NCBI RefSeq assembly: GCF_050920415.1
Contig: NZ_CP169309.1
DNA from: Escherichia coli
GTDB lineage: Bacteria > Pseudomonadota > Gammaproteobacteria > Enterobacterales > Enterobacteriaceae
Length of the DNA stretch: 64,000 nt
Direction: 5' to 3' (one strand)
The number at the start of each line of letters is the position of its first letter. The stretch's first letter is position 1. Below are positions 17,776-63,970 of the stretch, one piece after another. The position numbers and the translations under genes are program-made. The notes beneath the pieces are model-generated. The model worked only from the letters and a program-made list of their open reading frames with translations, was not told the origin of the DNA and did no database searches.

Positions 17776-18567
17776 ATGGGCCTTATGAACGCATTTGATT
17801 CGCAAACCGAAGATTCTTCACCTGCAATTGGTCGCAACTTGCGCAGCCGCCCGCTGGCGCGTAAAAAACTCTCCGAAATGGTGGAAGAAGAGCTGGAACA
17901 GATGATCCGCCGTCGTGAATTTGGCGAAGGTGAACAATTACCGTCTGAACGCGAACTGATGGCGTTCTTTAACGTCGGGCGTCCTTCGGTGCGTGAAGCG
18001 CTGGCAGCGTTAAAACGTAAAGGTCTGGTGCAAATAAACAACGGCGAACGCGCTCGCGTCTCACGTCCTTCTGCGGACACCATCATCGGCGAGCTTTCCG
18101 GCATGGCGAAAGATTTCCTTTCTCATCCTGGCGGGATTGCCCATTTCGAACAATTACGTCTGTTCTTTGAATCCAGCCTGGTGCGCTATGCGGCTGAACA
18201 TGCCACCGATGAGCAAATCGATTTGCTGGCAAAAGCACTGGAAATCAACAGTCAGTCGCTTGATAACAACGCGGCATTCATTCGTTCAGACGTTGATTTC
18301 CACCGCGTGCTGGCGGAGATCCCCGGTAACCCAATCTTTATGGCGATCCACGTTGCCCTGCTCGACTGGCTGATCGCCGCACGTCCAACCGTGGCTGATC
18401 AGGCTCTGCACGAGCATAACAACGTTAGCTATCAACAGCATATTGCGATCGTTGATGCGATCCGCCGCCACGATCCCGATGAAGCCGATCGCGCGTTGCA
18501 ATCGCATCTCAACAGCGTCTCTGCTACCTGGCACGCCTTCGGTCAGACCACCAACAAAAAGAAATAA
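17776..18567 (+). CDS. nanR: GntR/FadR-family repressor NanR
   Basis: 263-aa ORF with HTH and FCD domain; precedes nanATEK. Confidence 0.95.
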
Positions 18568-18630
18568 TGCCACTTTAGTGAAGCAGATCGCATTATAAGC
18601 TTTCTGTATGGGGTGTTGCTTAATTGATCT

Positions 18631-18653
18631 GGTATAACAGGTATAAAGGTATA
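18631..18653 (+). promoter_or_regulatory. NanR operator: three GGTATA direct repeats in nanA promoter
   Basis: GGTATAACAGGTATAAAGGTATA about 35 bp upstream of nanA start. Confidence 0.8.
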
Positions 18654-18688
18654 TCGTTTATCAGACAAGCATCACTTCAGAGGTATTT

Positions 18689-19582
18689 ATGGCAACGAAT
18701 TTACGTGGCGTAATGGCCGCACTCCTGACTCCTTTTGATCAACAACAAGCACTGGATAAAGCGAGTCTGCGTCGCCTGGTTCAGTTCAATATTCAGCAGG
18801 GCATCGACGGTTTATACGTGGGTGGTTCTACCGGCGAAGCCTTTGTACAAAGCCTTTCCGAGCGTGAACAGGTACTGGAAATCGTCGCCGAAGAGGCGAA
18901 AGGCAAGATTAAACTCATCGCTCATGTAGGTTGCGTCAGCACTGCTGAAAGCCAACAGCTTGCGTCTTCAGCCAAACGTTATGGCTTCGATGCCGTCTCC
19001 GCCGTCACGCCGTTCTACTACCCTTTCAGCTTTGAAGAACACTGCGATCACTATCGGGCAATTATTGATTCGGCGGATGGGTTGCCGATGGTGGTGTACA
19101 ACATTCCGGCGTTAAGCGGCGTTAAACTGACCCTGGATCAGATTAACACTCTGGTTACGTTGCCTGGTGTCGGCGCGCTGAAACAGACCTCTGGCGATCT
19201 CTATCAGATGGAGCAGATCCGTCGTGAACATCCGGATCTGGTGCTCTATAACGGTTACGACGAAATCTTTGCTTCTGGTTTGTTGGCGGGCGCTGATGGT
19301 GGTATCGGCAGTACTTACAACATTATGGGCTGGCGTTATCAGGGTATCGTGAAGGCGCTGAAAGAAGGCGATATCCAGACCGCGCAGAAGCTGCAAACCG
19401 AATGTAATAAAGTCATTGATTTACTGATCAAAACGGGCGTATTCCGCGGCCTGAAAACGGTCCTGCACTATATGGATGTCGTTTCTGTGCCGCTGTGCCG
19501 CAAACCGTTTGGTCCGGTCGATGAAAAATATCTGCCAGAACTGAAGGCGCTAGCCCAGCAGTTGATGCAAGAGCGCGGGTGA
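18689..19582 (+). CDS. nanA: N-acetylneuraminate lyase
   Basis: 297-aa [53 protein letters not shown] (DHDPS/NAL family). Confidence 0.96.
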
Positions 19583-19690: not shown

Positions 19691-21181
19691 ATGAGTACTA
19701 CAACCCAGAATATCCCGTGGTATCGCCATCTCAACCGCGCACAATGGCGCGCATTTTCCGCTGCCTGGTTGGGATATCTGCTTGACGGTTTTGATTTCGT
19801 TTTAATCGCCCTGGTACTCACCGAAGTACAAGGTGAATTCGGGCTGACGACGGTACAGGCGGCAAGTCTGATCTCCGCAGCCTTTATCTCTCGCTGGTTC
19901 GGCGGCCTGATGCTTGGCGCTATGGGCGACCGCTACGGGCGTCGTCTGGCAATGGTTACCAGTATCGTTCTCTTCTCGGCCGGGACGCTGGCCTGCGGCT
20001 TTGCGCCAGGCTACATCACCATGTTTATTGCTCGTCTGGTCATCGGCATGGGGATGGCGGGTGAATACGGTTCCAGCGCCACCTATGTCATTGAAAGCTG
20101 GCCAAAACATCTGCGTAACAAAGCCAGTGGTTTTCTGATTTCAGGCTTCTCGGTGGGTGCCGTCGTTGCCGCTCAGGTCTACAGCCTGGTGGTTCCGGTC
20201 TGGGGCTGGCGTGCATTGTTTTTTATCGGCATCTTACCAATCATCTTTGCTCTCTGGCTGCGTAAAAACATCCCGGAAGCGGAAGACTGGAAAGAGAAAC
20301 ACGCAGGTAAAGCACCAGTACGCACAATGGTGGATATTCTCTACCGTGGTGAACATCGTATCGCCAATATCGTGATGACACTGGCGGCGGCCACTGCGCT
20401 GTGGTTCTGCTTCGCCGGTAACCTGCAAAATGCCGCAATCGTCGCTGTACTCGGGCTGTTATGCGCCGCAATCTTTATCAGCTTTATGGTACAGAGTACG
20501 GGCAAACGCTGGCCAACGGGCGTAATGCTGATGGTGGTCGTGTTGTTTGCTTTCCTCTACTCATGGCCGATTCAGGCGCTGCTGCCAACGTATCTTAAAA
20601 CTGAACTTGCTTATAACCCGCATACTGTCGCCAATGTGCTGTTCTTTAGTGGCTTTGGTGCGGCGGTGGGGTGCTGCGTCGGTGGCTTCCTCGGTGACTG
20701 GCTGGGAACCCGCAAAGCGTACGTTTGCAGTCTGCTGGCCTCACAGCTGCTGATTATTCCGGTATTTGCGATTGGTGGCGCAAACGTCTGGGTGCTCGGT
20801 TTGTTACTGTTCTTCCAGCAAATGCTTGGACAAGGGATCGCCGGGATCTTACCGAAACTGATTGGCGGTTATTTCGATACCGACCAGCGTGCAGCGGGGC
20901 TGGGCTTTACCTACAACGTTGGCGCATTGGGCGGCGCACTGGCCCCAATCATCGGCGCGTTGATCGCTCAACGTCTGGATCTGGGTACTGCGCTGGCATC
21001 GCTTTCGTTTAGCCTGACGTTCGTGGTGATCCTGCTGATTGGGCTGGATATGCCTTCTCGCGTTCAGCGTTGGTTGCGCCCGGAAGCGTTGCGTACTCAT
21101 GACGCTATCGACGGCAAACCATTTAGCGGTGCCGTACCGTTTGGCAGCGCTAAAAACGATTTAGTCAAAACCAAAAGTTAA
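19691..21181 (+). CDS. nanT: Sialic acid transporter NanT (MFS)
   Basis: 496-aa MFS ORF from [22 protein letters not shown]...; the ORF-track start at 19661 is an upstream extension. Confidence 0.95.
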
Positions 21182-21227: not shown

Positions 21228-21913
21228 ATGTCGTTACTTGCACAACTGGATCAAAAAATCGCTGCTAACGGTGGCCTGATTGTCTCCTGCCAGCCGGTTC
21301 CGGACAGCCCGCTCGATAAACCGGAAATCGTCGCTGCTATGGCATTAGCGGCAGAGCAGGCGGGCGCGGTTGCCATTCGCATTGAAGGTGTGGCAAATCT
21401 ACAAGCCACGCGTGCGGTGGTGAGCGTGCCGATTATCGGGATTGTGAAGCGCGATCTGGAGGATTCTCCGGTACGCATCACGGCCTATATTGAAGATGTT
21501 GATGCACTGGCGCAGGCGGGTGCGGATATCATCGCTATTGATGGCACCGATCGCCCGCGCCCGGTTCCAGTTGAAACACTGCTGGCGCGTATTCACCATC
21601 ACGGTTTACTGGCGATGACCGACTGTTCAACGCCGGAAGACGGCCTGGCTTGCCAAAAGCTGGGAGCCGAAATTATTGGTACTACGCTTTCTGGCTATAC
21701 CACGCCTGAAACGCCAGAAGAGCCAGACCTGGCACTGGTGAAAACATTAAGCGACGCCGGATGTCGGGTGATTGCCGAAGGGCGTTACAACTCGCCTGCT
21801 CAGGCGGCGGATGCGATGCGACACGGTGCATGGGCGGTAACGGTCGGTTCTGCTATCACGCGTCTTGAACACATTTGTCAGTGGTACAACACAGCGATGA
21901 AAAAGGCGGTGCT

Positions 21914-21917
<4 letters not shown>
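21228..21917 (+). CDS. nanE: N-acetylmannosamine-6-phosphate 2-epimerase
   Basis: 229-aa [42 protein letters not shown]... Confidence 0.96.
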
Positions 21918-23250
<1,333 letters not shown>

Positions 23251-24635: not shown

Positions 24636-25805
24636 TCAGGAAGTTTCTCTTGCTGTCACTACGCCATTTTGCGCAGCCCACAGATTCACATCTTCCTTAC
24701 GAATGGCGGCGGCCATCATGCCGGGGAATAAATCAGGGGTACAGGCAAAGGAGGGAATACCCATGGCGGCGAGTTTTCCTGCCAGTGACCGGTCGTAAAA
24801 CGGTGCGCCTTCGTCGCTTAAGGCCAGCAGGGTAACCACCTGTACGCCGGACTGAATCAACTCACTGGCGCGTTGCAACAGATTGCGTTCCACACCACCT
24901 TCGTAGAGGTCGGAAATCAGCACCAGAATGGTATTACGCGGATCGCGAATCAAAGACTGGCAGTAACCTACCGCGCGGTTGATGTCGGTGCCGCCGCCCA
25001 GCTGCACGCCAAACAGCAGCTCTACCGGATCGTCGAGCTTCTCTGTCATATCAACCACTGCGGTGTCGAAAACCACCAGATGCGTTTTTACCGCCGGGAG
25101 CGATGCCATTACTGCGCCAAAAATACTGGAATAGACCACCGAGGAGGCCATCGACCCACTCTGGTCGATACATAAAATGATCTCCTTTTGCGTGCGTTGA
25201 GACTTGCGCCCGTAGCCGATTAACGTTTCAGGAACAATACTTTTGTACTCTTCCTGCCAGTGGCGCAGGTTGGCGCGAATGGTGCGCTGCCAGTCAATTT
25301 CCGCGTGGCGCGGGCGACGATTACGTACCGCACGATTAAGAGCGCCGCTTACCGCGCTACGCATTGGCTCTTCAAGCTGTTTCATCAATTGCTCGACAAC
25401 TTTACGCACCACAATCCTGGCGGTTTCTTTGGTTTTGGCCGGAATTACGCCATTCAGCGACATCAGCGTGGAGACCAGATGAACATCAGGCTGGACGTTT
25501 GCCAGCATCTCTGGCTCCAGCAACATACTGTGCAAATTAAGACGTTCAAAGGCGTCTTTTTGCATCACCTGAACCACAGAAGAGGGGAAATACTGGCGAA
25601 TATCACCCAGCCAGCGAGCGACTTTGGGTGACGATCCACCCGTGCCGCCGCGTAATCCATGTTTACCGTCTGGCTGATAGAGCGCCGCCAGCGCGGCATC
25701 AATCGCGGACTCTCTGGCATCCAGCGCCACGTTACAGGCATTGTCGGCATCTTCTCCAAGGATCAGACGCCAGCGGCGCAGCCGTTCCATCTCGTTACTC
25801 GACAT
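24636..25805 (-). CDS. von Willebrand factor A (vWA) domain protein with MIDAS motif; YehP-like
   Basis: 389-aa ORF; DxSxS MIDAS motif in ILCIDQSGSM; last gene of the five-gene operon; overlaps upstream gene by 11 nt; SD-like GGGAA before ATG. Confidence 0.8.
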   Translation of the reverse strand: MSSNEMERLRRWRLILGEDADNACNVALDARESAIDAALAALYQPDGKHGLRGGTGGSSPKVARWLGDIRQYFPSSVVQVMQKDAFERLNLHSMLLEPEMLANVQPDVHLVSTLMSLNGVIPAKTKETARIVVRKVVEQLMKQLEEPMRSAVSGALNRAVRNRRPRHAEIDWQRTIRANLRHWQEEYKSIVPETLIGYGRKSQRTQKEIILCIDQSGSMASSVVYSSIFGAVMASLPAVKTHLVVFDTAVVDMTEKLDDPVELLFGVQLGGGTDINRAVGYCQSLIRDPRNTILVLISDLYEGGVERNLLQRASELIQSGVQVVTLLALSDEGAPFYDRSLAGKLAAMGIPSFACTPDLFPGMMAAAIRKEDVNLWAAQNGVVTARETS

Positions 25806-28044
25806 GATTTTCCCTTTCGTGTGGTGGCAAAGCCAGAATGCGGCGCAGTAGCGGCAGCATTAACGCGGCACGCTGTTCATCCCATATACCGCTGGTCTCT
25901 TCTTGCTGCGCGACACGCTCGCCCTGCGCGGCGCGTTCGCCTAACTGGCGGCGTTCCGGGCTGGAAAAACGGCCGAATGTCCGCCGCAGCATCGGCAGGA
26001 TCCGGGTGAAGTGATTGTCGTTCAGGCCGCTTAGCCAGGCATCGATCAACTGCCATAATTCGCTATTGTGCAGTAGCACCATCGCGCTGTCGTTGAGGAA
26101 ACCTTCCGCCCATGCGGCACTTTCCGCCGGGGGATTGGCTGGCGATAGCGCCAGGTTCATCAGCGTGGTGATCCGTTCTGTCGTTAACGTTTGCAGATCA
26201 AACAACAGGCGCGTCGCCGTTCCGCGAAGCAGCGCGTGTGCGGTACTGCCCTCTGCCAGCACCATCAACGCCTGCAACCAGCCCGCCAACAGATCTTCGT
26301 TATCCAGCAACCGCAGCGCGGCGTGAGCGTCGATAACTTTTTCTCTCATACTGGCGGCGCTGTCGTCGTTGAGCGCCGAACAGGCACCGGGTAGGGCGAT
26401 GGCGGCGCGCGGGGCGAGGCTCATCAGTACCTGCATTACCATACCAGAGTCGGTCTGGCGCACGTTGCCGTAGCGGACAATCGCCACCAGCGGTGCCAGG
26501 GCTTCCAGCAACTGTTCGATATTGCCCTGAGTGGCAGCCAGTGATTCCAGTGTATTGGCGATGGGGGCAATCGCGGCCTGTAAATCGGCCAGTAGCACTT
26601 GTTGGATAAGCTTTGCCAGTTCCGGCAGCGTGCTGGCGTATTGCGCCCTCACAATGGCATAGCGGGAGCTGGCCTGCTCAATGCTGTTACCCCAACGGCT
26701 GGCGGTAATGATGTTCATTGCCAGTGCCGGTTCCCAGCGCAGCGACCAGACTTCGTGGAACGTCCCTTTGCTGTTATTTCCTTGTCCAGCCAGACGGCCC
26801 CAGGAAATGTCGAGTAAGGTCAGGCGATGCAGTAAATGGCTACGCGCCAGATCGCCGGGTTTGCGCAGATCAAGATCCAGCACTTTTTCGCTGGCTTCTG
26901 CCTTCAGGCGCAGCGTTTTTTGCTGTTGCGTAATGTCGCGTTGGAGCGGCACGACGGGCGTATCATCCGGTACGCTTCCCAGCGCGTCGCCGACAATTAA
27001 CTTCTGGCGAATCATCTGCATTGGCGCGCTTTCGCCCATACACACTACGGTTTGCAGCGCTTCGCAAAGTTCGTCAAGCCCCGGCTGCGGGTGATGGCGC
27101 ATAATCGCCAGCGTCTGCGCCAGCCGCGCCGCTTCGATAATGTGGGCGCTGGAACAGTCGAGATCGGCTTCGCGAAACAGCCTTGCCGCGCGTGACAGCC
27201 AGCCGATATCGCGGTGAGAAGCGCCCTGATAACGCCACAGATGATCGTACCATTCCGGTGACACCACCCCTGCGCCATAACCGCTGGCGCGGCTTAACGC
27301 CTCGTAGCTCCAGGGCGTCCAGGCTGCCGCGACCTTGCACTTCGGCAAATTTTTCAGCAGTTCGTTATCATTCTTTGCGGGCGGCAGGTTTTCCAGCGCC
27401 GGAACGTGCCACGCACCGCAGACTACCGCGATGCGCGAGAAGCCCTCTTTTTTCGCCTGACGTAGCGTCTTGCGCATATACGCTTCACGCAGTTGATCTC
27501 TGGCTGAGTTTCGGGCTTCGGGAGTTGCCTGGCGTAGGGCAATCATCGCCTCGCGAATCGCCTCGAACAGAGACAAATCATCTTCGCGTTCCTCTACTCT
27601 GTGGCTCCACCAGCTTTCCCCATCGGTGTAACCGGCGGCGCGGCCCAGCCAGTCCAGCGGATCGCCGTCGGGACTGGCTTCAACGGCATCATCGTCATCG
27701 CTCTCTTTTTCGTCATCAAGCGCGAACTGATGACTGATGGGCAAGTCCATAAAGCGCACGGCGATATTTTGCTCAAAACCATAGCGCAGCGCCTGCCATT
27801 CCGGGGAGAACGCCGCAAAGGGGTAAAACGCGGCGTGATGTGAGTCGTCCGGGGCATAAATCAGTAGCGCGACCGGCGGTTGCATCTGTTCATGCTGCAT
27901 GAAAGGCAGGATGGATTCGCCGTCGGGCGGCCCTTCCACCAGCAGGCAGTCGGGCTGTAGCGTCTCCAGCGCCTTTCGCAGGCTGCGCGCGCAGCCAGGG
28001 CCATGGTGACGGATGCCAAACAAATGAACGGTTTGTTCAGTCAT
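25795..28044 (-). CDS. Large uncharacterised protein (749 aa) with N-terminal TraB/PrgY/GumN (TIKI)-like motifs; YehM-like by size and position
   Basis: N-terminal VHLFGIRHHGPG...DCLLVEGPPD and later RIAVVCGAWHVPAL resemble the two conserved motif blocks of the TraB/TIKI family; long helical C-terminal region; domain call from motif recognition only. Confidence 0.7.
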   Translation of the reverse strand: MTEQTVHLFGIRHHGPGCARSLRKALETLQPDCLLVEGPPDGESILPFMQHEQMQPPVALLIYAPDDSHHAAFYPFAAFSPEWQALRYGFEQNIAVRFMDLPISHQFALDDEKESDDDDAVEASPDGDPLDWLGRAAGYTDGESWWSHRVEEREDDLSLFEAIREAMIALRQATPEARNSARDQLREAYMRKTLRQAKKEGFSRIAVVCGAWHVPALENLPPAKNDNELLKNLPKCKVAAAWTPWSYEALSRASGYGAGVVSPEWYDHLWRYQGASHRDIGWLSRAARLFREADLDCSSAHIIEAARLAQTLAIMRHHPQPGLDELCEALQTVVCMGESAPMQMIRQKLIVGDALGSVPDDTPVVPLQRDITQQQKTLRLKAEASEKVLDLDLRKPGDLARSHLLHRLTLLDISWGRLAGQGNNSKGTFHEVWSLRWEPALAMNIITASRWGNSIEQASSRYAIVRAQYASTLPELAKLIQQVLLADLQAAIAPIANTLESLAATQGNIEQLLEALAPLVAIVRYGNVRQTDSGMVMQVLMSLAPRAAIALPGACSALNDDSAASMREKVIDAHAALRLLDNEDLLAGWLQALMVLAEGSTAHALLRGTATRLLFDLQTLTTERITTLMNLALSPANPPAESAAWAEGFLNDSAMVLLHNSELWQLIDAWLSGLNDNHFTRILPMLRRTFGRFSSPERRQLGERAAQGERVAQQEETSGIWDEQRAALMLPLLRRILALPPHERENHVE

Positions 28045-28061
28045 AGTGGTTGCCTTGCTGA

Positions 28062-29156
28062 TTACACAATTTCGCGGCAGGCGCGATAGAGATCGTTCCA
28101 GTCGCTGCGCTCTTTGACGATAGTTTCCAGATATTCACGCCATACCACGTCGTCCTGCACGGGATCTTTTACCACCGCGCCGATAAGGCTTGCGGCGATA
28201 TCCCGCGGATGCAGCACGCCGTCGCCAAAATGGCCCGCCAGCGCCATACCGTTGTTGATAACGGAGATCGCCTCCGCGGTGCTGAGAGTACTGGTTGGCG
28301 ACTTAATTTTCGTTTTGCCGTCAACCGTCAGGCCGTTTCGCAGTTCGCGGAAGATTTGCACGACTCGCTGGATCTCTTTAAGCGCTGGCGGTTTGGCAGG
28401 AAGTGCCAGCGCCTGACCCAGTTCGGCGACGCGGCGAGTGACAATGTTAATCTCTTCTTCTTCGCTGGCGGGTACGGGCAAAATGACCGTGTTGAAACGA
28501 CGTTTAAGCGCGGAAGAAAGCTCGTTAACGCCTTTATCCCGGTTGTTGGCGGTGGCGATAACGTTAAAGCCGCGCGTCGCCTGGACCTCTTCATTCAGTT
28601 CGGGGATAGGCAGCGTTTTTTCCGACAGGATCGTGATCAGCGTGTCCTGAACATCAGCAGGAATACGCGTCAGCTCTTCTACGCGTGCAATCTGCCCGCG
28701 CGCCATCGCCCGCATCAACGGACTTTCTACCAGCGCCAAACGTGACGGACCTTTAGAGAGCAACTCCGCGTAGTTCCAGCCATAACGCATTTGTTCTTCA
28801 CCGGTGCCTGCGGTGCCCTGAATAATTAACGTTGAGTCGCCGCTGATGGCAGCCGCCAGATGTTCAGATACCCAGGATTTCGCAGTGCCGGGTACGCCAT
28901 ACAACAGCAGTGCGCGATCGGTTGGCAGCGTGGCAACGGCGGTTTCGATAATCCGCCGGTTGCCGATATATTTCGGCGTGACCTCAAAGCCATTTTCCAG
29001 CTGCCCGCCCAACAGATAGGTGGCGACGGACCATGGAGAAATGGCCCAGTTTTCCGGGCGCGGATGAGTATCGTTTTTTTGCAGCTCATCCAGTTCTTCA
29101 GCAAATTGTTGTTCGGCATGTCGGCGTAAAACGGCGGCAGTAGCGGTAGCATTCAT
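28062..29156 (-). CDS. MoxR-type AAA+ ATPase (YehL-like)
   Basis: 364-aa ORF; Walker A GVPGTAKS; sensor-1-like FNVIATANNRD; ATGA overlap with upstream gene. Confidence 0.82.
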   Translation of the reverse strand: MNATATAAVLRRHAEQQFAEELDELQKNDTHPRPENWAISPWSVATYLLGGQLENGFEVTPKYIGNRRIIETAVATLPTDRALLLYGVPGTAKSWVSEHLAAAISGDSTLIIQGTAGTGEEQMRYGWNYAELLSKGPSRLALVESPLMRAMARGQIARVEELTRIPADVQDTLITILSEKTLPIPELNEEVQATRGFNVIATANNRDKGVNELSSALKRRFNTVILPVPASEEEEINIVTRRVAELGQALALPAKPPALKEIQRVVQIFRELRNGLTVDGKTKIKSPTSTLSTAEAISVINNGMALAGHFGDGVLHPRDIAASLIGAVVKDPVQDDVVWREYLETIVKERSDWNDLYRACREIV

Positions 29157-30757
29157 AAAGTGGTTTCTCCGACAAAAAGCGAATTAAGTTGAATTCGGTT
29201 CGCCAGCGCGGCGCTCAGGGCAGTAAAGGCTGCCTCGCAATAAGGCGTTTGTTGTGCGTCGTGCGGCCACTTGTCAATGACATCATTGAGGACTTCGGGG
29301 GCCAGCAGGCAGGCGAAATCACTCATCACATGGCGCAGGGCGTAGTCAAAGCGCGCGGAATCATATTTCACCCAACGGTGTAGCTCCGTGACCATTTGCT
29401 GGCTCAGGCGCAGGCTAAAGAGCGACGCATCCAGCGGTAACAGGCTGATGTAGCGATGTAAATGTTCGCCGCCCACCACTGAGAACAATGACCGTAACAT
29501 CGGCTCGTGTTCTTCTACAGGCAGACATTGCAAAAGCTCAAAGGCGTTAATCTTCACGCCTGCAGGATGATGAATGCTCATTCCGACGGGCAGCATGGCG
29601 AGAAACGCCTGCGCCCACTGCGGATTTTTTTCGCGCAGTACGGCGTGATACCAGGCGCGCAGTAGCGCCTTCTGCCAGTCGGTTTTCCCGGCCCAGCGCA
29701 GCAGTTCAACGGGGGTAGCCTGCAGTTGCGTTTGCCACCAGTCGAGCGGAACCGCTGCAACTATCTGATACAGCCACCATGCGCGCTGGCCCAACTTTTC
29801 GCCTTTGGGCTTAGTTTCTTCCAGCGCATCGGCCTTCCACTCTGGTAAGAACGCCTCCGGGGCATCAAGGGCGACGTGCAGCATTTTTTCTTTGCCGGAT
29901 AAGCCTTTTAGCCTTTCAAGTAAGGTCTCAGGAGCGGGGGATGAACTGAGCAACGGCGCTAACCGAGACTTCATGCGCGAGATCCAGGCGCTTTCCGGCA
30001 GACAACACAGTAACCGTGCCGCAGTTTGCCGCACCTCTTTGCTGCGATCGGATAATGTCTGTTCCAGAAAGGCTTCGTCGTGTTGGGAGATCTCCACTTC
30101 CAGCACAGCCAGCAGCTGTGCGCGTTCGCGGGCATCCAGCGAACTCATCTCCTGCGCCAGCCGATCGCGACCCTGTTCCGGGGCGCGAATGCGCATTTGC
30201 GTCAGATATTGCAGACGCTGTTCGGACGTGCCGTGCAGCCACATTTCTTCATCCAGCGGAGCGTCAACGGAGGCAAGAAAATAGCGCCAGTCGGCGTTAA
30301 TTTGCGCCAGCCAGCGCCCGCGAGCGCCGAGGACATTGGGCAGAATGCCGCGTATTGATGGATTTTGTACGCCGTAATTCAGCAGTGCCGGTAACAGCAG
30401 GGGCGGAGAAAGAAGCTGACGCTGGACCAGGTGATCAAGCGCTGACCACAGTAAACGCGGCGGCCCTTCTGCCAGCAACAGATGCAGCAGTCCCGCAAAA
30501 GCCGGGTTGTTTATTGGCTCGGCATTTTCTTTATCGATTTCCGGCAGCGGTGCGGGGTCAATCGCCTGCGGCACCCAGCCAGCCAGATGGCAGAGCGCCA
30601 GAACGCCCGCCGAGCGCAGTAGCTGTTGCTCTGCGGATGTGTTATTCGCCAGTTCAGACAGTAACAGCCCAATCTCACTTTGCGACGCCGACGGTGTGAA
30701 CGCTTTTTTGTCTGTGCCGAGTAGCGCTGTGCGGGTTAAATTTTGCCATTCGTTCAT
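29153..30757 (-). CDS. Uncharacterised protein (about 534 aa), helical, no recognised catalytic motif
   Basis: Long ORF (ORF track 29153-30778); preferred start ATG at 30757, which has GGAGG 7 nt upstream and forms an ATGA overlap with the stop of the SWIM gene. Confidence 0.7.
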   Translation of the reverse strand: MNEWQNLTRTALLGTDKKAFTPSASQSEIGLLLSELANNTSAEQQLLRSAGVLALCHLAGWVPQAIDPAPLPEIDKENAEPINNPAFAGLLHLLLAEGPPRLLWSALDHLVQRQLLSPPLLLPALLNYGVQNPSIRGILPNVLGARGRWLAQINADWRYFLASVDAPLDEEMWLHGTSEQRLQYLTQMRIRAPEQGRDRLAQEMSSLDARERAQLLAVLEVEISQHDEAFLEQTLSDRSKEVRQTAARLLCCLPESAWISRMKSRLAPLLSSSPAPETLLERLKGLSGKEKMLHVALDAPEAFLPEWKADALEETKPKGEKLGQRAWWLYQIVAAVPLDWWQTQLQATPVELLRWAGKTDWQKALLRAWYHAVLREKNPQWAQAFLAMLPVGMSIHHPAGVKINAFELLQCLPVEEHEPMLRSLFSVVGGEHLHRYISLLPLDASLFSLRLSQQMVTELHRWVKYDSARFDYALRHVMSDFACLLAPEVLNDVIDKWPHDAQQTPYCEAAFTALSAALANRIQLNSLFVGETTL

Positions 30758-32076
30758 TGTGCGCCTCCGGTTGCCCAAATCACGCTACCGGCAAGCCAGG
30801 CGCTACAGGGCGTCAGCTGCTGACCATCCCATTCCCCCATTAGCATAAACGGCGCGCCGCCGCTGGCCGCCAGTAACCGCCAACCCTCGTCCGACGACAG
30901 GTGCGTCGGTAAGTGCTGGCCCTGTGTCGAGACGAATCGCCAGCCGCTCTCGTGCGGGTAAATCAATATTTCGCTTACTCGCAGCGGCAGAGGCCATTGC
31001 CAGGGATTCGCGCTAAGCCGCTGCGCCATGTCATGCAGCGCGTCCGGGAGGGGTAATTCTGCAAGCGGGAATCTTTCACCGCGGGTAAACGGCTCCACAA
31101 TCCGCGCCCGTAGCGGTGATGCGCCAGGGAAAAAGGCAAGCGCGCCCTGGCAGACTTGCCCGGTGATAAAGTGCTGGGGAAAGTTTTTACCACCGTGTGA
31201 ATAGTCCAGCAGTAGCGCGGTGCGGTGGCTCTTTTCTCCGTACAGCCAGACCCGGCGTCGCCACAGATTATTCTCTTCTTGCGCGCTTTGGCCTAAGACC
31301 TGCCAGTTATCAAGGCAGGTTAGTCCGTCAGCGATGTCATGTTTATCCGGGGTTATTCCCAATGCTGCATGGAGATCGCTAAGTTGTGCCGGGGATAACA
31401 TTTGTTGCTGGCGCCAGGCGTCAATAATCAGCTGTAGCTGCCCCAGTTCTTTGCACAGGCTCGATGGCCATACCTCGGCGGTAGTAAAAAGAGTGGTCAG
31501 ATTGTTCAGGCGAGCGGCAATTCCCGGTAGTTGAGCGTCGACCATGCGGGCGGCGATCCCGGCAAAAGGCAACTGTTGTGCAGAGATCTGCGCCAGACCG
31601 TGGCGGATCAGGTCGTGCATCCACTGTTCGAGGAAATCCAGCCCCGCCGTCATTTTTTGGTTGCGTGCCGCTTCCCGTTTGGCGGCAGCCTGCGGGTCGG
31701 CAGCTTTTGCCTCAGCCTGCTCTTTCTTTTCTTCTTTGCGAACCGCTCGCTGCTGGCGCGAGGTTAGCCACTCGCTTACCCATTCCGGCGGCTCGCCAGC
31801 GGTGAAACTTGCGGTGTGTTGCACCTGGAGCAAAAGCAACGCAAGGCTATGTTTACAGGGGAATTTACGGCTGGGGCAGGAACATTTACAGGCCAGATCC
31901 TGCCTGTCGACCCGTACCTGATAAGGGCGGGAGCCGCTGCCTTTACATTCTCCCCAGAACGCGGTCTCGCTATATCCCAGCGTCGGCCATTTTGCGGGGG
32001 CAACCAGGCCACGAGCCGCTTTAACCGAGGCGTCATCGGGCGCCAGGGCTTGCACTGATTCAACGGTCAGTTCCAT
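30754..32076 (-). CDS. SWIM zinc-finger domain protein (YehQ-like), first gene of operon
   Basis: 440-aa ORF; CxCxnCxH signature in DLACKCSCPSRKFPCKHSLALL; remainder unrecognised. Confidence 0.75.
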   Translation of the reverse strand: MELTVESVQALAPDDASVKAARGLVAPAKWPTLGYSETAFWGECKGSGSRPYQVRVDRQDLACKCSCPSRKFPCKHSLALLLLQVQHTASFTAGEPPEWVSEWLTSRQQRAVRKEEKKEQAEAKAADPQAAAKREAARNQKMTAGLDFLEQWMHDLIRHGLAQISAQQLPFAGIAARMVDAQLPGIAARLNNLTTLFTTAEVWPSSLCKELGQLQLIIDAWRQQQMLSPAQLSDLHAALGITPDKHDIADGLTCLDNWQVLGQSAQEENNLWRRRVWLYGEKSHRTALLLDYSHGGKNFPQHFITGQVCQGALAFFPGASPLRARIVEPFTRGERFPLAELPLPDALHDMAQRLSANPWQWPLPLRVSEILIYPHESGWRFVSTQGQHLPTHLSSDEGWRLLAASGGAPFMLMGEWDGQQLTPCSAWLAGSVIWATGGAQ

Positions 32077-42236: not shown

Positions 42237-42348
42237 CCCCGGCTAGACCGGGGTGCGCGAATACTGCGCCAACACCAGGGAAATCTTGGCTGCGCCGTAA
42301 ATTATTATGATGAGTTACAAGGGCACAGCACTGTTTTTCAGGCCGCAC
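42228..42348 (-). ncRNA. arcZ: ArcZ small RNA (Hfq-dependent), overlapping arcB 3' end in antisense
   Basis: Minus-strand sequence GTGCGGCCTGAAAAACAGTGCTGTGCCC...CCCCGGTCTAGCCGGGGTCATTTTTT recognised as ArcZ, including its 3' terminator; lies between arcB and elbB. Confidence 0.8.
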
Positions 42349-63817: not shown

Positions 63818-63905
63818 AATCTCGCGCTAACAACCTGGAATCGAGCCGTCATACTACGGCGCAACGCCCTATAAAGTAAACGATGACCCTTCGGGAACTT
63901 CAGGG

Positions 63906-63970
63906 TAAAATGACTATCAAAATGTGAATTGTAGCTGACCTGGGACTTGTACCCGGGTCGGTATTTTTTT
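63906..63970 (+). ncRNA. Putative greA leader with intrinsic terminator (GraL-like short transcript)
   Basis: TAAAAT -10-like hexamer at 63906-63911; hairpin GACCTGGG-ACTTGTA-CCCGGGTC followed by T7 at 63964-63970, divergent from dacB, upstream of the expected greA start beyond the window. Confidence 0.4.

Follow-up and report, generated by a model that had tools for sequence, protein, structure and literature searches.

The three GGTATA hexamers at positions 18631-18653 (+) of the window, the 64,000-nucleotide stretch of Escherichia coli DNA analyzed here, form, with a probability of about 0.96, the NanR operator of the E. coli nanATEK-nanQ (yhcH) promoter. This operator is already known, it lies in its canonical place, and it is the same as in the K-12 reference. 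Given this identity, NanR is expected to bind the site and to regulate the operon in the present strain as it does in K-12. We found no sequence features that argue against the site being a NanR operator. The finding is mainly an annotation check: this E. coli chromosome has a complete, repressor-controlled operon for the catabolism of sialic acid, a trait linked to gut colonization. It adds nothing to existing knowledge of NanR and serves as a textbook-grade positive control for the detection of regulatory sites in raw sequence.

The GGTATA array and its gene context

NanR operators are defined by three direct GGTATA repeats with gaps of 2-3 nt (PMC3658417, PMC8012715). The same arrangement was found in the window at 18631-18653, where the operator core GGTATAACAGGTATAAAGGTATA comprises hexamers at 18631-18636, 18640-18645 and 18648-18653, all on the + strand and separated by the spacers ACA and AA. 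The first-pass annotation had described three direct hexamers upstream of nanA at a spacing of 9 bp. The hexamers are indeed present, starting at 18631, 18640 and 18648, but the spacing is correct for the first interval only: start to start, the distances are 9 and then 8 bp, corresponding to gaps of 3 nt (ACA) and 2 nt (AA). Tandem Repeats Finder delimited the same interval as an array of 2.7 copies with a period of 8-9, and neither this program nor a repeat finder detected a palindrome across it.

GGTATA occurs 23 times in the window when both strands are counted, compared with 13.3 occurrences expected. These three copies are the only ones that lie on the same strand less than 30 bp apart. 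From the base composition, about 3.5e-5 triple GGTATA arrays with gaps of 1-5 nt are expected per 64 kb; when the window was simulated 300 times with a first-order Markov model, five GGTATA pairs and no triple were obtained. The full operator pattern, with up to three mismatches allowed, has a single occurrence in the window.

The array is situated in the 121-bp gap between nanR and nanA (18568-18688), directly 5' of the sialic-acid operon, and its end is separated from the ATG of nanA (18689) by 35 nt. Upstream, nanR (17776-18567, +) encodes a GntR/FadR-type regulator of 263 amino acids that matches NCBIfam NF003011 with 408.9 bits (cut-off 260). Downstream, nanA (18689-19582, +), the first gene of the operon, encodes N-acetylneuraminate lyase and matches the equivalog TIGR00683 with 570.5 bits (cut-off 382). 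It is followed on the same strand by nanT (19691-21181), nanE (21228-21917), nanK (21914-22789) and nanQ (yhcH; 22786-23250), each with an NCBIfam match above the curated cut-off. All six proteins, NanR, NanA, NanT, NanE, NanK and NanQ, are full-length, cover their NCBIfam profiles in full and are 95.9-99.7% identical to their K-12 counterparts (tblastn), with NanA at the upper (99.7%) and NanK at the lower end (95.9%). Therefore, the earlier statement that the nan locus is intact holds at the sequence level. In the RefSeq annotation of a strain that is identical over 351 bp around the operator, the gene order is likewise dcuC(dcuD)-nanR-nanA-nanT-nanE-nanK-nanQ-yhcG.

Further downstream in the window, between yhcG and gltD, five genes on the minus strand (24636-32076) encode proteins of the types VWA_CoxE, DUF5682, AAA_5 MoxR-like ATPase, DUF5691 and SWIM zinc-finger. 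At the same position, K-12 has gltF and the fimbrial genes yhcA-yhcF (with IS5) in place of this cluster, which is a strain-variable island. Rfam matches above the gathering score were obtained for the sRNA ArcZ and for the enterobacterial greA leader (42241-42348 (-) and 63848-63969 (+), respectively), as is expected for this chromosomal region of E. coli.

Conservation of the operator region

A 161-bp stretch that runs from the 3' end of nanR across the spacer into nanA is identical to K-12 MG1655 (NC_000913.3) at 161 of 161 positions. Comparison with the characterized nanA promoter, which had been proposed as a check, thus gave 100% identity, and the match to the known NanR-binding arrangement was borne out, as the sequence is that of the K-12 operator bound by NanR (PMC8012715). 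Within the species, identity was at least 99% for the 121-bp nanR-nanA spacer in 5382 of 5408 complete E. coli genomes; for the 40 bp centered on the array, 5351 of the 5414 complete genomes that gave a match reached this level. The copy number of the repeat is fixed in these genomes, and the locus does not behave like a variable short tandem repeat (VNTR or contingency locus). In contrast, when the query was extended to 351 bp so that it included coding flanks, identity of at least 99% was reached in just 335 genomes. The spacer is therefore constrained at least as much as the coding flanks, and from these alignments it looks unusually constrained over its whole length, beyond the operator alone. 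Sequence similar to the 40-bp block is found at a median of two and a maximum of four places per E. coli genome, which fits the two or three operons known to be controlled by NanR.

The two other known NanR-controlled operons are those of nanX/yjhB and nanC. In K-12, the identical 23-mer is located upstream of nanX (yjhB), and a near copy, GGTATAACAGGTATAAAGGTGCA, upstream of nanC. Alignment of the three K-12 sialoregulon operators revealed an invariant block of 27 bp, TTGATCTGGTATAACAGGTATAAAGGT, corresponding to 18624-18650 in the window. We also scanned one genome per species for GGTATA-N1-4-GGTATA-N1-4-GGTATA; the matches listed are not a census of NanR operators. The only informative loci among them are those of two Enterobacter species with the same 23-mer between nanR and nanA, whose NanR and NanA proteins are about 83% and about 90% identical, respectively, to those of the window. 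In the alignment of E. coli with these two species, TCTGGTATAACAGGTATAAAGGTATATCGTT (18628-18658) is invariant, whereas the 20-25 nt between this block and the ribosome-binding site have diverged. Judged by this pattern, the invariant stretch amid a diverged spacer is a phylogenetic footprint of the operator. Taken together, the alignments of the K-12 operators and of E. coli with Enterobacter delimit an extended conserved block, TTGATCT plus operator plus TCGTT, at 18624-18658 (+).

Spacer and flank bases are invariant at the three E. coli operators and/or in the two Enterobacter species (five sequences compared). A tentative reading, which we regard as possible but rather doubtful, is that the operator is a composite element of about 27-31 bp in which the spacers ACA and AA, the 9/8-bp phasing and the flanks (TTGATCT on the left and, at nanA, TCGTT on the right) are selected as strongly as the hexamers. 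In such an element, the second, 'non-consensus' domain of the asymmetric NanR dimers would read the spacers and flanks and might set the order in which dimers are loaded. The five compared sequences are consistent with a composite operator without establishing it.

The scan also matched arrays in other settings. Pseudoalteromonas sp. TB64 (L003:9135-9212) and Shewanella sp. KT0246 (L034:431-481) carry plain arrays, (GGTATAACT)n and (GGTATAGAA)n, of about 8-10 copies. We rejected them as homologous operators because they are plain 9-nt tandems and because the fetched loci of both genera contain neither nan genes nor a homologue of NanR or NanA. At least 12 Collinsella genomes among the matches listed have in common TTGGTATAACTCGGTATAAGTTGGTATAACT, in which GGTATAA is repeated three times with a period of 10 bp (C. 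aerofaciens L054:5873-5898; also L004, L005, L011, L056 and others). This array follows a TetM/EF-G-like gene and precedes, by about 35 nt, a gene pair encoding an AAA_16 ATPase and a UvrA-like ABC protein; it resembles an operator but has no relation to nan genes. In the Bacteroidetes MAG OH_CBrB_217 (JAEZBX01 contigs, L058-L122), more than 60 loci contain dispersed GGTATA(A/G)GGTATA... arrays with a period of about 7 nt, a repeat family that appears to be genome-specific.

NanR binding, promoter anatomy and alternative readings

Binding of NanR to the (GGTATA)3 operator of E. coli K-12 was previously demonstrated by EMSA, analytical ultracentrifugation and cryo-EM (PMC8012715). The site is occupied cooperatively by three NanR dimers, with a KD of 20-39 nM and a Hill coefficient of about 2, and at least two repeats with native spacing are needed: one repeat is bound poorly, two repeats give two complexes, and lengthening the spacers by 6 nt weakens binding (PMC8012715). 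Each dimer sits asymmetrically, in that one of its domains occupies GGTATA while the second contacts neighboring non-consensus DNA, and binding of Neu5Ac weakens DNA binding 28-fold (PMC8012715). The NanR protein of the window aligns over residues 1-263 to PDB 6ON4/6WFQ/6WG7, of which 6WFQ and 6WG7 were solved with the protein on this operator, and is identical at 262 of 263 positions; the sole change, T206A, is outside the DNA-binding domain, in the effector domain. Kalivoda and colleagues reportedly described, in 2003, a NanR footprint of about 30 bp that covers the promoter.

The hexamers TATAAC (18633-18638) and TATAAA (18642-18647) on the + strand, read from the sequence, are candidate -10 elements of nanA and lie inside the operator. 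Nevertheless, a consensus scan of 18500-18750 identified neither a canonical sigma-70 -35/-10 pair nor a terminator. Failure to detect a canonical promoter can be expected where the promoter depends on an activator and its -35 element is poor. The nan operon is described in the literature as activated by CRP (PMC10334811, PMC12562284) and as being under the combined control of CRP and NanR (PMC10334811). A CRP-like site, AGTGAagcagaTCGCA, is present at 18577-18592 (+), with two mismatches to TGTGA-N6-TCACA. Its center is 46.5 bp upstream of the operator start, against a background of 13 such matches per 64 kb. A CRP-like site 46.5-47.5 bp before the operator was found in five of five promoter regions, namely those of E. 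coli nanA, nanX and nanC and of nanA in the two Enterobacter species. If the CRP site is centered at -61.5, the transcription start would be near 18646 and TATAAC would be the -10 element; if it is centered near -71.5, the start would be near 18656 and TATAAA would serve as -10. Under either placement, the operator would cover the -10 region. The Shine-Dalgarno sequence of nanA, GAGG (18680-18683, +), is positioned 5 nt before the ATG and is conserved in the Enterobacter alignment. A perfect 7-nt inverted repeat, ATAATGC/GCATTAT (18564-18570 and 18590-18596), encloses the CRP-like site together with the stop codon of nanR. This repeat may act as a weak terminator hairpin for nanR or may extend the symmetry of the CRP site, and its arms are not conserved in Enterobacter.

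Based on these data, the nanA promoter would work as follows. When sialic acid is absent, three NanR dimers would load cooperatively on the three GGTATA repeats, each placing one winged-helix domain on GGTATA and the other on neighboring non-consensus DNA, with the 32-residue N-terminal extensions of NanR making the dimer-dimer contacts. Since the array overlaps the -10-like hexamers of nanA, the complex would sterically block RNA polymerase. This is in line with the published mechanism of repression, steric occlusion of RNA polymerase by an operator that overlaps the -10 element (PMC8786299). Once N-acetylneuraminate has entered the cell, it would bind the C-terminal domain of NanR and lock a conformation with approximately 28-fold lower affinity for DNA. 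The operator would then be vacated and the operon transcribed, aided by cAMP-CRP bound about 47 bp upstream. In genomic SELEX, the one site that NanR still bound when Neu5Ac was present was the nanC/fimB spacer, not nanA (PMC5934670), which is compatible with inducer-driven release at nanA.

Considering that every GGTATA forms a -10-like hexamer with the bases that follow it (TATAAC, TATAAA and TATATC), and that the array is in the expected position of a promoter, 35-58 nt before the ATG of nanA, the TATA-rich repeats might be read as reiterated core-promoter elements without any repressor site. We consider this very improbable. The two functions are not mutually exclusive, as overlap of operator and -10 element is how repression was reported to work. 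Furthermore, a bare -10 element requires neither an invariant GG, nor three copies, nor fixed ACA and AA spacers, all of which are conserved at nanA, nanX, nanC and in Enterobacter, and binding of NanR to exactly this arrangement of repeats has been measured (PMC8012715).

Even less credit can be given to the other two explanations. One holds that the array is the target of another regulator, for example one that reads NarL-type heptamers: a GGTATA-containing motif was scored for both NanR and NarL in phylogenetic footprinting (PMC13058942), and the reverse complement contains the TAC-led heptamers TACCTTT and TACCTGT. However, these heptamers mismatch TACYYMT at the M position, the array is direct instead of 7-2-7 inverted, no nitrate-related genes adjoin it, and it occurs together with nanR and sialic-acid genes at three E. 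coli loci and in Enterobacter. The other explanation is a functionless short tandem repeat that arose by chance or slippage, as the Tandem Repeats Finder call and the plain (GGTATANNN)n arrays without nearby nan genes in Pseudoalteromonas and Shewanella would suggest. Here the low expectation per window and the lack of triples in the simulations speak against chance, more than 5300 E. coli genomes keep the same copy number and sequence, and between genera the array is unchanged although the neighboring spacer has diverged. Chance or slippage is excluded by the statistics together with the invariance in more than 5300 genomes and two further species. We therefore retain the assignment of 18631-18653 as the NanR operator of the nan operon.

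Comparison with known operators

The closest known system is the nanATEK-yhcH operator of K-12 (Kalivoda et al. 2003, 2013; Horne et al. 2021, PDB 6WG7). The operator and the 121-bp spacer are identical to it, the gene order is the same, and NanR differs from the solved protein at one of 263 residues. The strain differs from K-12 in NanK (95.9% identical) and in the gene island downstream of yhcG.

Of the other two K-12 operons, nanXY (yjhBC) has the same 23-mer, and nanCMS shares the first 20 nt but has a degenerate third repeat (GGTGCA); both operators control different downstream genes. The left flank TTGATCT is common to them and the window, and a CRP-like site is found 47.5 bp upstream of each, whereas the flanks diverge beyond the 27-bp invariant block.

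Compared with the palindromic operators of the FadR/GntR family, such as the FadR site, the same winged-helix fold reads the major groove (PMC8012715). Unlike these palindromes, which are bound by one dimer on an inverted repeat, the NanR operator consists of direct repeats that are occupied by three dimers in an asymmetric and cooperative manner.
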